From an uncultured Alphaproteobacteria bacterium (GTDB lineage Bacteria; Pseudomonadota; Alphaproteobacteria; RF32; CAG-239), in contig CALXPU010000005.1 in NCBI GenBank assembly GCA_944390455.1, positions 9,252 through 73,251 of the forward strand: 64,000 nucleotides of DNA. Direction: 5' to 3'. Positions 40,679-50,639 of the stretch are shown here, one piece after another (positions within the stretch are counted from its first letter, which is position 1; every line of letters begins with the position of its first letter). A model generated the notes under the pieces. That model did not search any database and was not told the DNA's origin. It saw only the letters and a list, made by a program, of their open reading frames with translations. A program made the position numbers and the translations under genes.

Positions 40679-41782
40679 TTGGATTTAACAATGGGTCGAA
40701 ATATGAAAAAAAGTTTTTTATTACCGTTTTGTTTATTATGTGCTTGTGGATTTTCTGCTTGTAGCAGTTTCTCCACAAAAAACGAAACAAGTGCTTATAT
40801 TCCAGAAGAAGAAGCACCTATCATTGATGCAACTGTAAATCCTAATAATCGTTGCGGAGTTAATGGCATCAGTTGTAATGACACTGCATTGGTTAACTAC
40901 ACAAAAACTGAAGCCGATTACAGAGCTTATGGCGAAAGAACTAAAAGAGATCATTTGTATACCCAATCTGCGGCAGGCAATAATTTAACTGCCACAATTC
41001 AACCAGATGTTGAAAATGATGTTGTGGTTGCTCAGCCATCTGTCACAGTAAGTGATACGGTAAGAAAAAATAGAACACCAAAATATGTTGTTGATGATGG
41101 TGTATTTAGCGAAACAGGTAAATTAGAGTTAGAGACGTCCCCAAAATCTTATGAAGCTCCAAATAACTATGGATTGGACAAGCAAGTTCCTCAAAAAACT
41201 CGTACAGCTCAACAGAAACCTACCGCAAAAGAGACACCTACAAAGATCGGCCATGCTGATAACATTAAGTTACCAGAAATCAAAGAAATCAGACAAATTA
41301 AAAAGAGTGTTGCCGAAGATGGTTCTTCTTACGAAATTGTTTGTGAGGAAGATTGTGACGATATAATAGATGACGATGTTATTACTTCAGAATTCACGGA
41401 AGAATCTTTTGATATTGCTGACTATGTTGATGATGAAAACATTGAATTTACAGAGGTTGGTAAAGCAAAACAAATTACCGATGTTGATATTAATGAGATT
41501 CAAGTTGGTGATGACACTATATTGACATGGGAAGCTGAAGAAGGAGAAAATTTGCGCGAATTGCTTACCAAATGGAGTGCGATGTCTGGTTGGAAGCTGT
41601 TATGGAATACTAACAGAAATTATATCTTAAATGCCGGTGTTATGTTTAAAGGTAAGTTTGCTGATGTTAGCTCTGCTTTGATTAGAGCTTTTGCTAGAGC
41701 AAGACCTGCACCTATTGCTACATATTACAAAGGGAATCGTGTTATAGTTGTTGAAACAATGGAGAATGAGAATGCATACTAA
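40679..41782 (+). CDS. PilL/TcpQ-like lipoprotein (type IVb pilus secretin-associated pilotin-like protein)
   Basis: Lipobox LLCACGFSAC. The C-terminal TcpQ-like pattern is LTWEAEEGENLRELLTKWSAMSGWKLLWNTNRNYILNAGVMFKGKFADVSSALIRAFARARPAPIATYYKGNRVIVV. Located directly upstream of the secretin gene. Confidence 0.5.
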   Translation: MDLTMGRNMKKSFLLPFCLLCACGFSACSSFSTKNETSAYIPEEEAPIIDATVNPNNRCGVNGISCNDTALVNYTKTEADYRAYGERTKRDHLYTQSAAGNNLTATIQPDVENDVVVAQPSVTVSDTVRKNRTPKYVVDDGVFSETGKLELETSPKSYEAPNNYGLDKQVPQKTRTAQQKPTAKETPTKIGHADNIKLPEIKEIRQIKKSVAEDGSSYEIVCEEDCDDIIDDDVITSEFTEESFDIADYVDDENIEFTEVGKAKQITDVDINEIQVGDDTILTWEAEEGENLRELLTKWSAMSGWKLLWNTNRNYILNAGVMFKGKFADVSSALIRAFARARPAPIATYYKGNRVIVVETMENENAY

Positions 41783-43376
41783 TAAGAAACATTTACTTGG
41801 ATTTGCAGCGTTTTTACTTTTAGGTGTTGCATCTTGTTCGTTGCCTACCGATTATGATGCGGCATTAGAGAGAGATGTTGAAGCAACCATTAAGCATAAG
41901 GAAGATGCTAAAGCTCCTCAAACAGTTGCAGATACAGATGTTATCAGAATTAAAGATGATATTTGGTTAGGTGACACCAGTGAGATTGAATATGAAGGAG
42001 ATAAACCCTTACCGCACTATTTAGAAACTTCTGATGGCGTTACTTTGGTAAGTAATAGACCTATTACACTTTATGAAATTGGCAACATGGTTAGCCAAAT
42101 AACTTCTATTAAAGTTCGTTTTGCACCACAATTGGAAGGTGCTGCAAAGGCAGCGGCTGATAAGAATGCTCCAACCATTTCAAAAGTGGGATCTAAATGG
42201 TCTGATACATCCCGTATGCTTGTTTCTTACAAGGGGTCATTGAGCGGTTTATTAGATGAGGTATGTTCACATTTTGGTGTGTGGTGGAAATATGAAAATG
42301 GAGAAATCTATATTTACAAATACACTACAAAAACATTTACGTTGTATACATTACCAACGAAGCCATCTATGACATCTAGCGTAAGTAGTTCTTCTGGTGG
42401 CGGTACCATTACGAGCGGTGTATCCGGTATTGATTTGTGGGGCAATATTGTTACGGCTGTAAAATCCATGCTGGGAACAGGATCCAGTCTCGTAACAGAC
42501 CCGATGAACGGCACATTGACAATTACGGCAACGCCTACAGAAATAAAAAAAGTTGCTAAATTTGTTAATGAACAAAACATTAGATTGTCACGTCAAGTAG
42601 CTATTAGTGTTAAAGTGCTTCAGGTTGAAGTTGACGAATCTCGTGGTTTTGGTTTTGATTTAAATGCAGCATTTAAAGATAGAACAGCTTCTGGCGGAAA
42701 TATCACTTTAGGTGACAATAACTTTGGTCCTACAGGTCTTATTGATGGTAACAGTGGCATGTCCATGAAAATTTTGAGTGGTGATGTTACAGTTAATGCT
42801 GCAATTCAAGCTTTATCTACTCAAGGTGTTACAACATTGGTTACCAGTGGTACTGTTACAACAATGAATAATAAGCCGGCACCTATCCAAGTAGTTAAGA
42901 CACAGAACTACATTTCAGAATATACGAAAACGAACAATGGTACCGTAGGCGGTGAAGCAAGCTACGATGTTACTGTTGAAACAGAAGAGATTGAGACAGG
43001 CTTTACTTTAGACGTTTTACCAAGGATTATGGATCATGGTCGTTTGATGATGTTATTCAGCCTTAACCTTTCTGATTTACTTGACTTGGAAAATGTAAAC
43101 TTAGATAGTTCGGAAGAATCTGGTTATATTCAGAACCCGATTATAGAGGAAAGAGGTTTCTCTCAAGAAGTTGCATTAAAATCAGGTGAGACTTTAGTTC
43201 TTTCTGGTTATGAACGTGTTGAGACAACTAGTGATAAAGCCGGTTTAGGTGCTGTTAACAATAATATTCTGGGTGGTCACCAAAAAGTTGATAAAACTCG
43301 TAGCATTGTTGTTATTTTGTTAACCCCTGTTGTATTAGAATCACCTTTGATGCCAGAATCTCGTATGAAATTTTAG
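41748..43376 (+). CDS. Type IVb pilus secretin lipoprotein (PilN/TcpC/BfpB-like)
   Basis: Lipoprotein signal (LLLGVASCS). The C-terminal secretin domain reads GETLVLSGYERVETTSDKAGLGAVNNNILGGHQKVDKTRSIVVILLTPVVLES. Confidence 0.65.
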   Translation: MLKQWRMRMHTNKKHLLGFAAFLLLGVASCSLPTDYDAALERDVEATIKHKEDAKAPQTVADTDVIRIKDDIWLGDTSEIEYEGDKPLPHYLETSDGVTLVSNRPITLYEIGNMVSQITSIKVRFAPQLEGAAKAAADKNAPTISKVGSKWSDTSRMLVSYKGSLSGLLDEVCSHFGVWWKYENGEIYIYKYTTKTFTLYTLPTKPSMTSSVSSSSGGGTITSGVSGIDLWGNIVTAVKSMLGTGSSLVTDPMNGTLTITATPTEIKKVAKFVNEQNIRLSRQVAISVKVLQVEVDESRGFGFDLNAAFKDRTASGGNITLGDNNFGPTGLIDGNSGMSMKILSGDVTVNAAIQALSTQGVTTLVTSGTVTTMNNKPAPIQVVKTQNYISEYTKTNNGTVGGEASYDVTVETEEIETGFTLDVLPRIMDHGRLMMLFSLNLSDLLDLENVNLDSSEESGYIQNPIIEERGFSQEVALKSGETLVLSGYERVETTSDKAGLGAVNNNILGGHQKVDKTRSIVVILLTPVVLESPLMPESRMKF

Positions 43377-43385
43377 GAGTTTGCA

Positions 43386-49015: not shown

Positions 49016-49677
49016 TGCTTGATAATATTAAGCTTATTTATCGGAAATTTTTGAACGACATTAAGCCTTATTGGAGCAGAATATGTAATGTTTATATTCC
49101 GAGATTGCACCTATTCATAAATGAGAATAAAGATTTTTTACAAACTAATAAAATCTTTATTGTCAAAGCAGCAATACCTTGCCTAGTAATAGTTCTTTTA
49201 TTTTATTCATGTTCGTCATCCAGACGCGCTGTTACTCACAATATAACAACTATTTTTGAGATTGCAGAGAGTGCGCGAACTTATTACAGTAACAAACCTG
49301 ATTATTGGGGATTGTCTACGGATATTTTGGTTAATAATAATGTTATTCCTGCCCAAAACCTTCAGGATAAAAATATTGTTTTGGAAGATAGTATTCATGT
49401 TCTTTTAGGTGAAGGATATTTAGCCGCACCGGTTTCTCCTAGGATGCTGACTTTTGATATAGTTATCCCGAACTTAAATAAAGCCAAATGCATGGCCTAT
49501 GCAGAAGCAGAGTTATCTGAACAGCAACTCTTAGTTCTTGATAAATTGACTATTTATAATGACGAAGGAAACGCTGTTTATACATGGGGAGGAGAAAATA
49601 CTCTTCCTGTTGTAAAATACTCAAGCAAAAACTTTTGCATTAACGGAGCTAATACACTTATTTGGTCTTTGAAATAG
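49016..49677 (+). CDS. Membrane-anchored hypothetical protein at the end of the pil module. It does not carry a canonical type IV prepilin signature.
   Basis: An internal start (MLDNIKLI...) follows a GGTTAG spacer. There is one transmembrane helix (IFIVKAAIPCLVIVLLFYS). No G/FxxxE prepilin motif is present. The upstream 94 codons in the ORF track overlap pilR and are probably not translated. Confidence 0.35.
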
Positions 49678-49691
49678 TTTGTTTTATTTTC

Positions 49692-50639
49692 TTAGAATAT
49701 CGGCAAAGATTGTGCCATTCTTGCGGCTTGCATTTCAATAGATGTAGCTAAATTTAACTTACCACTACGAATAATTGAGCGAACAGAGCAACCTTTATTC
49801 AAGTCAGGATTAGCAAAAAGTGTTTCTATTCTAGGCTTTCTGTGTGTTTCTGTGCCAACCAAATCTTGTTTAATAACAGATAGGATACCGCGGGATAAAA
49901 TATCATATGCGGAACTTTCACTCATACTGAAACTTGCATATTTAACCAAAGAACTTAACGCATCCGTAATGGAGCTTGCGTGAATCGTTGTGAGCACCAA
50001 GTGCCCTGATATTGAAGCTCTTAGGCATTCACACGCCGCATCAGGTGTTCTTATCTCTCCGATAAAAATATAGCGTGGTTTAGAGCGTAATGCTGATTTA
50101 AGAGGATCACGCCAGTTGTCATTTTGAACTTCTGTTTGTTTACAGAAACCTATTGAGCCATTAAATGATTGATATTCTCCTTCCAATGGCATTTCGGCAG
50201 GATCTTCAATTGTATAGGCAAAACCGCCTTCCAGATTTAAGTATTCTGCAAGAAGGCTTGATATTGATGTTGTTTTACCTGAACCTGTTGCTCCCCCCCA
50301 TATTATTAAACCACTTTGTGCAGATAGAGATAGCATATATTGAACAAATCTGTGATCAAATCCTAAATTATGAATGCTCGGAATAGTGAGAGGCATTCTT
50401 CTCAAACAATATAACTCTCCATTTACACTTAGGACGTTTTCAACACGGAAAAATGTTCCTTTATAGTTCATTGAATAGGAACTTGTTTGATGCATAATTA
50501 AAAAGAGTTGCTCGCAAAATTCCTCTTTATCACTTGGCACTACCCTTTTTAAACTATTAGCATATTTTTCATCTGATATATAAAAATCTTTATTTGAATT
50601 TATATATAAATCCGAAAAACTGTATTGCAAAAGTTCCAT
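49692..50639 (-). CDS. PilT/PilU/DotB-family hexameric ATPase
   Basis: 315 aa. Walker A WGGATGSGKTTSI, Walker B-like RYIFIGEIRT, His box GHLVLTTIHASS. It is co-oriented with atpF and 14 nt downstream of it. Confidence 0.7.
   Translation of the reverse strand: MELLQYSFSDLYINSNKDFYISDEKYANSLKRVVPSDKEEFCEQLFLIMHQTSSYSMNYKGTFFRVENVLSVNGELYCLRRMPLTIPSIHNLGFDHRFVQYMLSLSAQSGLIIWGGATGSGKTTSISSLLAEYLNLEGGFAYTIEDPAEMPLEGEYQSFNGSIGFCKQTEVQNDNWRDPLKSALRSKPRYIFIGEIRTPDAACECLRASISGHLVLTTIHASSITDALSSLVKYASFSMSESSAYDILSRGILSVIKQDLVGTETHRKPRIETLFANPDLNKGCSVRSIIRSGKLNLATSIEMQAARMAQSLPIF

Follow-up and report, generated by a model that had tools for sequence, protein, structure and literature searches.

We analysed a 64,000-nucleotide stretch of DNA (the window) from an uncultured Alphaproteobacteria bacterium (GTDB RF32; CAG-239), which corresponds to positions 9,252-73,251 on the forward strand of contig CALXPU010000005.1 in assembly GCA_944390455.1. 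The map of open reading frames (ORFs) places eight closely packed plus-strand ORFs at 39197-49677, on which a ninth ORF, at 49692-50639 on the minus strand, converges. The region 39197-50639 holds the genes of a type IVb pilus (T4bP) machine from the class that includes the bundle-forming pilus (BFP) and the R64 thin pilus. The intergenic region in front of it presumably carries the promoter; scans for promoters and terminators found such sites no commoner than in shuffled sequence. The features are as follows.

38934..39196, no strand: divergent intergenic region between the first virB2 paralogue (-) and the first pilus-operon gene (+), presumed promoter region
39197..40588, + strand: X463, which opens the operon and encodes a secreted protein made up of a signal peptide, a region rich in Ser/Thr/Glu/Lys and a conserved C-terminal domain of ~90 amino acids
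40691..41782 (maximal ORF from 40679), + strand: TcpQ/BfpG/PilL-family lipoprotein, by PF10671 and lipobox
41772..43376 (maximal ORF from 41748), + strand: PilN/BfpB-type lipoprotein secretin, by PF00263, TIGR02520 and lipobox
43386..44663, + strand: PilO2/BfpC-like bitopic inner-membrane protein, by PF06864 and hydropathy
44653..46167 (maximal ORF from 44620), + strand: X515, the protein at the PilP position, by conservation and hhalign to IncI PilP
46206..47873 (maximal ORF from 46197), + strand: PilQ/BfpD-type assembly ATPase of the GspE family, by PF00437 and ATPase motifs
47889..49010 (maximal ORF from 47877), + strand: PilR/BfpE-type platform protein of the GspF family, by PF00482
49015..49677, + strand: non-cleavable type IVb pilin paralogue of 220 amino acids, by Pfam Bundlin and AlphaFold/Foldseek
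49692..50639, - strand: PilT/BfpF-like retraction ATPase of 315 amino acids, by PF00437 and pilT_fam, convergent with the operon

An earlier note, made from the sequence alone, had proposed the gene order TcpQ/PilL-like protein, secretin, PilO-like, PilP-like, GspE and GspF, and Pfam and NCBIfam profiles bear this out, as N-terminal lipoboxes do for the two lipoproteins. Its boundaries had to be moved. The conserved operon begins not at 40679 but one gene earlier, at 39197, with X463; the last plus-strand ORF starts at ATG 49015, 4 nt past the pilR stop, and not at 49016; and the minus-strand ORF at 49692-50639, which the note covered in its range and left undescribed, encodes the PilT/BfpF-like ATPase.

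The identity of most components is supported by strong profile matches. In the TcpQ-like protein, PF10671 matches residues 283-359 with an E value of 6.8e-17, above the gathering score, and the N-terminus carries a lipobox (MKKSFLLPFCLLCAC/GFSAC). The secretin, with an N-terminal lipobox of its own (LLLGVASC), matches PF00263 (E 7e-17), and its best NCBIfam model is TIGR02520 (PilN family type IVB) at 262.7 bits, just below the equivalog cutoff of 287.65; MshL and GspD reach 119 and 49.9 bits, respectively. By tblastn the secretin matches 2879 plasmids annotated PilN. The PilO2-like protein belongs to the PilO2/BfpC family described previously (PMC3984277): it scores 52.6 bits against PF06864 (PAP_PilO; gathering score 26.7), and its hydropathy profile indicates a cytoplasmic N-domain, a single transmembrane segment at ~188-220 and a periplasmic C-domain. 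PilQ matches PF00437 with 210.9 bits and has the Walker A, Asp box, Walker B, His box and tetra-Cys motif, all present in 47/47 orthologues, while PilR matches PF00482 in two stretches (94.1 bits). The PilT-like protein scores 103 bits against PF00437, with pilT_fam as its best NCBIfam model; it has Walker A, Asp box, Walker B and His box, and its SVRSIIRSGK resembles the AIRNLIRE motif.

Two further proteins, X515 and X463, had no match in Pfam (35 members of each), NCBIfam or PDB sequence profiles. In X515 (504-515 amino acids), a signal peptide precedes an A/Q/P-rich region, which is followed by a coiled coil and, at the C-terminus, a PilP-like beta domain. It is present in all complete loci, with invariant coiled-coil and C-terminal blocks. 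The designation PilP-like holds for the C-terminal domain alone, which weakly resembles the C-terminus of IncI PilP (hhalign E 6.8e-4, probability 27%), and not for the rest of the protein. X463 is the first gene in all 46 complete loci, with a C-terminal block invariant in the alignment; a single-sequence AlphaFold model of this domain was poor (predicted local distance difference test, pLDDT, 56.9).

We scanned one genome per GTDB species for relatives. The gene for the pilin paralogue is carried by 50 species, all of them uncultured Alphaproteobacteria represented by metagenome-assembled genomes (MAGs) whose sources are the guts of humans, primates, ruminants and other animals. MAGs titled 'Acetobacter sp.', 'Bacillota bacterium' or 'Lachnospiraceae bacterium' (L041, L056, L018, L023) are likely mislabelled or contaminated bins. 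By PilQ identity to the window the loci form two clades, the window's clade (>= 88%, 25 loci) and a sister clade (<= 74%, 25 loci). The eight genes occur in identical order in 46/46 loci with enough sequence. A PilT-like gene usually adjoins the operon, as in 22/25 loci of the window's clade; the three species of that clade without an adjacent copy are L024/L008, L022 and L032, and in L008/L024 the atp operon follows directly after the pilin paralogue. The sole broken gene among the loci is a pilR split into two ORFs on a short contig (L027 667-1796, CAZRHI010000088.1), a frameshift or an assembly error.

To gauge selection we compared the window with four species at dS ~1, using the ratio of non-synonymous to synonymous substitution (dN/dS). 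PilN, PilQ, PilR and PilT are 96-99% identical, with dN/dS of 0.01-0.03 (PilN ~0.01, PilQ ~0.015, PilT-like ~0.01). The values are 0.03-0.04 for PilO, 0.06-0.07 for the TcpQ-like protein, 0.07-0.1 for X515 and 0.12 for X463.

We then set the machine against known systems, using an IncI-gamma/K1 plasmid in place of R64 (AP005147) for the IncI comparisons. By sequence the machine is closer to Bosea-type and BFP-like clusters, which have a second ATPase, than to IncI R64. The best matches among annotated records are in the T4bP cluster of the Bosea sp. RAC05 megaplasmid pBSY19_1 (NZ_CP016463.1), with identities of 36% for PilQ, 33% for PilR, 33% for the second ATPase over its full length, 42% for the TcpQ domain and 27% for PilO2 over 420 amino acids. 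Its PilP-position protein shares the X515 architecture (signal peptide, Pro/Ala/Gln-rich region, coiled coil, C-terminal beta domain). The Bosea cluster differs from the window in carrying, downstream, a PilV adhesin and further small genes; it yielded no X463 homologue, and the 199-amino-acid gene after its second ATPase is unrelated to the pilin paralogue. BFP of enteropathogenic Escherichia coli and the BFP-like cluster on E. coli plasmid p786605_3 (CP091397.1) share the core order with the window: BfpG (TcpQ-family), BfpB, BfpC, a small or periplasmic protein at the BfpU position, BfpD, BfpE and the retraction ATPase BfpF. Identities are 33% for PilQ, 35% for PilR and, over its full length, 34% for the PilT-like protein, and bundlin is the nearest known family of the window's pilin paralogue. 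In contrast to the window, the plasmid-borne BFP cluster supplies its own prepilin peptidase and also encodes a lytic transglycosylase, minor pilins and a canonical bundlin; it lacks both X463 and an uncleavable pilin paralogue after the platform gene.

The likeness to R64 claimed by the earlier note is one of gene order and of T4bP class, with the sequences lying nearer the BFP-like and Bosea clusters. The IncI1 (R64) thin pilus shares the order pilL(TcpQ-like)-N-O-P-Q-R-S, and in the window the place of PilS is taken by the paralogue, which can be aligned in register with the N-terminus of PilS; identities are lower, 30% for PilQ and 24% for PilR. Unlike the window, R64 has pilS with G/WGIME, pilT (transglycosylase), pilU (peptidase), pilV with a shufflon and pilI/J/K/M, has no PilT-type ATPase, and accompanies an I-type type IV secretion system (T4SS). 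A tblastn search of the window with IncI PilM, PilS, PilT, PilU and PilV and with Bosea PilV gave no match at E <= 0.01. The neighbouring T4SS is instead of P-type (VirB2, B4, B8, B9, B10, B11) and stands among dnaN, recF and the atp F0 genes, without the I-type (MPF_I) association. T4bP membership thus holds at the level of the machinery; the cluster has no canonical prepilin, and strictly speaking the machine is no R64 thin pilus. Tfp7 of Burkholderia pseudomallei and PAPI-1 pil2 of Pseudomonas aeruginosa, R64-variant systems borne on a chromosome or an integrative and conjugative element and compared here by description, have TcpQ2 in place of PilL and a separate pilT2 ATPase gene, and Tfp7 is chromosomal and vertically conserved; unlike the window, both have canonical pilS2 and pilV2 inside the operon (PMC3984277). 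X463 and the uncleavable pilin paralogue are two components not described for the BFP, R64 or toxin-coregulated pilus (TCP) systems.

Judged from its sequence and predicted structure, the last plus-strand ORF, which holds the PilS position, encodes a paralogue of type IVb pilins: it has their fold but an altered N-terminus. It matches Pfam Bundlin at E 2e-4 (22.1 bits; gathering score 22.3), some of its homologues bear precomputed Bundlin and PilS matches, and the best PDB sequence for the family profile is bundlin 1zwt. The AlphaFold model has a pLDDT of 89.8, and its top seven Foldseek matches are TcpA, CofA and Salmonella Typhi PilS, with probabilities of 0.90-1.00. The protein comprises a variable N-terminal region of ~45 amino acids, a K51-x3-P55-x10-C66 segment, the alpha1-C helix and a conserved globular head, which keeps the D-region disulfide pair C159-C208. 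The claim that no prepilin is recognisable here thus stands for the motif, since the ORF has no G/FxxxE, and fails for the protein, a recognisable pilin homologue with the TcpA/CofA/PilS fold. When IncI PilS (...SHDKG/WGIMEQGA...) and the paralogue (...LQTNK/IFIVKAAIP...) are placed against each other by eye, Lys stands at both the Gly-1 and the Glu5 position, so that the paralogue should not be a substrate of prepilin peptidase. Comparisons by hhalign with IncI PilS, in which the alignment begins downstream of the cleavage site, and with PilM were not significant. This uncleavable paralogue is found in every complete operon.

The two clades differ sharply in how the paralogue appears to be anchored. 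Bacterial lipoboxes have the form [LVI][ASTVI][GAS]C and end a short hydrophobic region close to the N-terminus. In the window's protein, Cys66 lies within a lipobox-like 'LFYSC'. K51, P55 and C66 are invariant in 24/24 members of the window's clade versus 0/25 of the sister clade, and a PROSITE-type lipobox pattern matches 19/24 versus 1/25. The hydrophobic stretch between the invariant K51 and the invariant C66 is exactly 14 residues long throughout the window's clade, whereas sister-clade paralogues have an ordinary hydrophobic anchor of ~20 residues, with neither the Cys nor the Gly/Glu5 pair. Since so short a stretch between Lys and Cys resembles a signal for signal peptidase II more than a membrane anchor, the balance tips slightly towards a lipoprotein lipidated at Cys66 in the window's clade, where a lipid anchor appears to have replaced the signal anchor.

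The conservation of the paralogue runs in the reverse direction to that of real pilins. Its mean pairwise identity rises from 16% in the N-terminal region through 21% in the transmembrane segment and 31% in alpha1-C to 38% in the head; in canonical prepilins it falls from 94% in alpha1-N to 65% in alpha1-C and 40% in the head. Among 1.84 billion representative proteins searched, the paralogue profile matched 144, of which ~100 at E <= 1e-10 form a group of their own. Nearly all of these are ~160-225 amino acids long, the exceptions being a few that are fragments or giant repeat proteins, and they have a basic N-terminus, a single hydrophobic segment and an [RK]P.YWGL motif. Class III pilins appeared only among the weakest matches. 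The giant proteins P0400, P0401 and P0405 (1932-3343 amino acids) each contain 14-16 repeats matching profile positions 163-200 (E 5e-12 to 7e-11); these could be derived from a pilin head or reflect chance similarity between beta-hairpins.

We searched for the canonical prepilins and their peptidase in the 64-kb window, past its edges and, for the rest of the window's clade, in the loci with 10 kb on either side, a small part of the genome. A regular expression for the class III signal (G/xxxxE), run on ORFs of at least 50 amino acids, found none in the window and, across loci L001-L060, none in the window's clade. A tblastn search of the window with canonical prepilins returned the paralogue alone (E 0.002). 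For the A24 peptidase, the pattern GxGD[..][KR] proved too narrow, since IncI PilU has GTGDLW, and was replaced by phmmer with two reference peptidases, which gave no homologue in the window or at any of the loci, whether of the window's clade or of the sister clade. The reported lack of pilS (as a class III prepilin), pilU and pilV at the locus is thus upheld by regular expression, phmmer and tblastn. There is nothing unusual in the missing peptidase: it is also absent from the sister loci that do have canonical prepilins, so its absence from the window says nothing special, and PAPI-1 and B. pseudomallei Tfp7 have no pilU of their own either and borrow the PilD of another system (PMC3984277).

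In contrast to the window's clade, 19/25 sister loci have one to three tandem canonical prepilins directly after the paralogue (within 10 kb), usually followed by pilT on the same strand. These prepilins (L036-L060, ~10.5-12.7 kb; P0018-P0257) combine an invariant N-terminus (GRSMVEMLGVLAIIGVLS; ...G/RSMVEMLGVLAIIGVLS..., that is, of G/RSMVEML type) with hypervariable heads. They carry Bundlin and PilS domains, and each of two homologue searches yielded at least 8000 clusters at 90% identity, a hyperdiversity that suggests strong diversifying selection or antigenic variation. The canonical-prepilin homologues listed are of sister-clade types only, and grouping the matches by alpha1-C segment and amino-acid composition produced no clade-specific group. 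Since canonical pilins and the paralogue coexist in the sister clade, the paralogue is a component in its own right, and a universal one.

Two sister MAGs show that a prepilin gene can lie well away from the operon. In CABQIK01 the operon (L052) has no adjacent prepilin, and an orphan prepilin lies beside rlmN on another contig; in CAVBCV01 (L056) there is one prepilin at the operon and one at the rlmN locus. The orphan locus (L066-L070; CABQIK010000012.1, CAVBCV010000001.1; ~10.0-10.8 kb) places the prepilin between a small hypothetical gene and rlmN, in the neighbourhood rlmN-ialB-pcnB-parB-parA-gidB-gidA-mnmE. Within the sister clade, both MAGs fall in the subclade nearest the window (PilQ 74% identical), where pilT already has the inverted orientation found in the window. 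Relocated pilin genes are hence the likeliest explanation for the window's clade, and the suggestion made at the outset that the pilin genes may be elsewhere is the one that the evidence favours.

Taking these results together, we propose that 39197-50639 would encode the complete, functional envelope machine for a retractile pilus of the BFP/R64 class, with the uncleavable pilin paralogue as a fixed part and with pilins and peptidase supplied from elsewhere; we give this reading as a whole a probability of roughly 0.6. At the outer membrane, the PilN-type lipoprotein secretin would work with the TcpQ/PilL-like lipoprotein as its partner. X515 would span the distance from the inner membrane to the secretin through its PilP-like C-terminal domain, a step suggested by the low-probability hhalign match to IncI PilP and the identical architecture of the Bosea homologue, and the bitopic PilO2/BfpC protein would share this link. 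PilO2, the platform PilR and the extension ATPase PilQ would make up the inner-membrane motor, the PilT-like ATPase would retract the fibre, and X463 would be one more conserved secreted component. Lacking Gly-1 and Glu5, the paralogue would be neither processed nor polymerised like a pilin. Its pilin-fold head would stay in the periplasm, tethered to the envelope by an N-terminal signal anchor in the sister clade and, in the window's clade, by an N-terminal lipid added after a signal-peptidase-II cut at Cys66; there it may serve as a stator or as a docking element for pilins or for the PilO/PilP/secretin assembly. The true fibre subunits, class III prepilins of G/RSMVEMLGVLAIIG type, are most likely encoded elsewhere in the genome; for them and for the prepilin peptidase we infer this from the sister precedent and the near-perfect conservation of the retraction ATPase. 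The pilus would probably mediate contact with cells or surfaces in the gut, possibly jointly with the divergent VirB-type T4SS.

The proposed role of the paralogue has a functional analogy in the archaellum, whose FlaF and FlaG resemble filament subunits but retain the membrane helix at the N-terminus, escape cleavage by the prepilin-type peptidase and are built into the machine as fixed parts. They belong to an unrelated lineage and differ in fold details, and we claim no homology.

Several observations weigh against this proposal. No canonical prepilin lies within 10 kb on either side in any of the 25 loci of the window's clade, and no prepilin, peptidase or other pilus gene was seen in the ~10 kb past the left edge of the window or in the ~3 kb past its right edge, the latter on a short contig from another sample. 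The lipobox is atypical, with an aromatic residue at -2 and, in two species, Thr at -1; the Cys is residue 66, behind an N-region of ~50 amino acids, with no Met 12-40 residues upstream. The paralogue also evolves faster than the other components, with dN/dS of 0.13-0.3. Finally, we found in the literature no experimental precedent for a structural uncleaved pilin-like component in a T4bP, and nothing relevant on pili in these gut Alphaproteobacteria.

The first of these points could be taken further, to a machine repurposed to work without pilins. The window's clade would have lost prepilins and peptidase altogether, and a T4bP apparatus with a retraction ATPase under very strong selection would do something other than build a conventional pilus, with only the lipidated or anchored pilin-head protein, perhaps a former pilin turned into a lipoprotein. 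It might act as a piston-less gate for secretion or uptake, or assist the adjacent VirB-type T4SS. The contrast between 0/25 and 19/25 loci with a prepilin within 10 kb speaks for such a loss, as does its exact coincidence with the gain of K-x3-P-x10-C, and no peptidase was present in any sequence examined. Yet the PilT-like ATPase, whose sole known role is fibre depolymerisation, is present in 22/25 loci and is kept at 96-99% identity and dN/dS ~0.01 in close species. Moreover, prepilins located far from the operon are proven in sister genomes, loci with canonical prepilins lack the peptidase too, and the sequence searched amounts to a small part of the genome. We therefore consider this reading unlikely, if still worth keeping in mind, and it would be much the more interesting if true.

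Alternatively, the product of 49015-49677 might itself be the fibre subunit, polymerised after cleavage by signal peptidase II or I or without any cleavage. Its place at the PilS position directly after pilR fits this idea, as do the full pilin fold, the long alpha1 helix in the model, the D-region disulfide and its rank as the fastest-evolving protein of the operon. However, a cut at Cys66 would take away the whole alpha1-N polymerisation helix, and in the uncut protein the cytoplasmic extension of ~45 amino acids would block extraction from the membrane. Its variability is concentrated in the N-terminal region while the head is conserved, opposite to what exposed pilins display, and canonical hypervariable major pilins exist beside it in the sister clade. 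We regard a fibre made of the paralogue as very improbable.

The setting of the module bears on whether it could be the decaying remnant of a pilus from a horizontally acquired conjugative element of R64/PAPI-1 type that has lost pilS, pilU and pilV. A VirB-type T4SS occupies 8349-38933 on the minus strand, with VirB11, VirB10, VirB9, two VirB8, VirB4 and three VirB2 paralogues; the last virB2 start lies 263 bp from the pilus operon and points away from it, a head-to-head arrangement. A virB2 start upstream of the pilus operon is also seen in loci L028, L022, L031 and L032; adjacency to the T4SS is kept in the window's clade and weakly suggested in one sister locus (E 0.06). Downstream of the module are the ATP synthase F0 operon, a DsbA-like gene, dciA, a XerC/D-like tyrosine recombinase, aroK, rph and a Ham1-family gene. 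The GC content of ~0.36 is uniform, with no difference between the module and its flanks. Uniform GC and housekeeping neighbours make the module chromosomal, with no obvious island, and confirm its earlier placement on the chromosome beside a VirB-type T4SS. The recombinase (54251-55159) is of the Phage_integrase family with an N-terminal SAM-like domain, hence XerC/D-like, and has housekeeping genes around it.

For a remnant one may cite the lack of any pilV, pilU, pilT (transglycosylase), pilM or shufflon homologue in the window. Against it stand a nine-gene module intact in ~25 species of the clade and always placed at one chromosomal site, flanked by the virB2 genes and the atp F0 operon, very strong purifying selection, no observed frameshifts or relaxed selection in relatives, GC content equal to that of the flanks, and no module-specific integrase or tRNA boundary. 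Intact ORFs in 46 species together with dN/dS of 0.01-0.03 for PilN, PilQ, PilR and PilT exclude a degenerate module, a description that the earlier note had entertained, and leave the remnant scenario barely credible.

A Tad/Flp pilus or a type II secretion system, hinted at by GspE and GspF family matches common to all such systems, was rejected on profile scores and gene content alike and has next to no likelihood, in agreement with the initial assignment to T4bP: the secretin scores 262.7 bits as PilN type IVB against 49.9 as GspD, TcpQ and PAP_PilO are T4bP-specific, the TadA-family model reaches 42.9 bits against 219 for GspE, and there is a single platform gene with no GspC/L/M, pseudopilin or Flp-type ORF.

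Other genes of the window complete the picture of the locus. The window opens with dnaN (1111-2229) and recF (2230-3468), and dnaA and rpsT lie just upstream (in L064); the window thus starts beside replication-origin genes, and both the T4SS and the pilus system are within ~50 kb of dnaA. The VirB-type T4SS is of unusual make-up: a VirB10/TrbI domain is fused to beta-flower repeats (9398-13759, 1453 amino acids), followed by a 2092-amino-acid beta-flower/RHS/DUF3659 repeat protein (13731-20009), a VirB9(CagX)-SPOR fusion (20006-21973) and a 1793-amino-acid protein without a Pfam match (23875-29256); the three VirB2 paralogues occupy 37599-38933. No relaxase or coupling protein was found in the 64-kb window. 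On the other side, an F0-only ATP synthase operon (atpI-like, a, c, b', b) at 50654-53061 (-) adjoins pilT in the window's clade, and no F1 genes were identified among the window ORFs scanned, which were part of all ORFs. Cooperation between the pilus and the T4SS is plausible, given that their adjacency is conserved in the clade.

These results describe a conserved, vertically inherited T4bP subfamily in widespread uncultured Alphaproteobacteria of human and animal guts. The pilin hyperdiversity of the sister clade, with its thousands of clusters, points to strong diversifying pressure on the pilus in the gut. If the paralogue is indeed a fixed machine part, it would be a bacterial counterpart of the idea embodied by archaellum FlaF/FlaG: a filament subunit would have been recruited as a stator or docking element and its signal anchor then exchanged for a lipid anchor.

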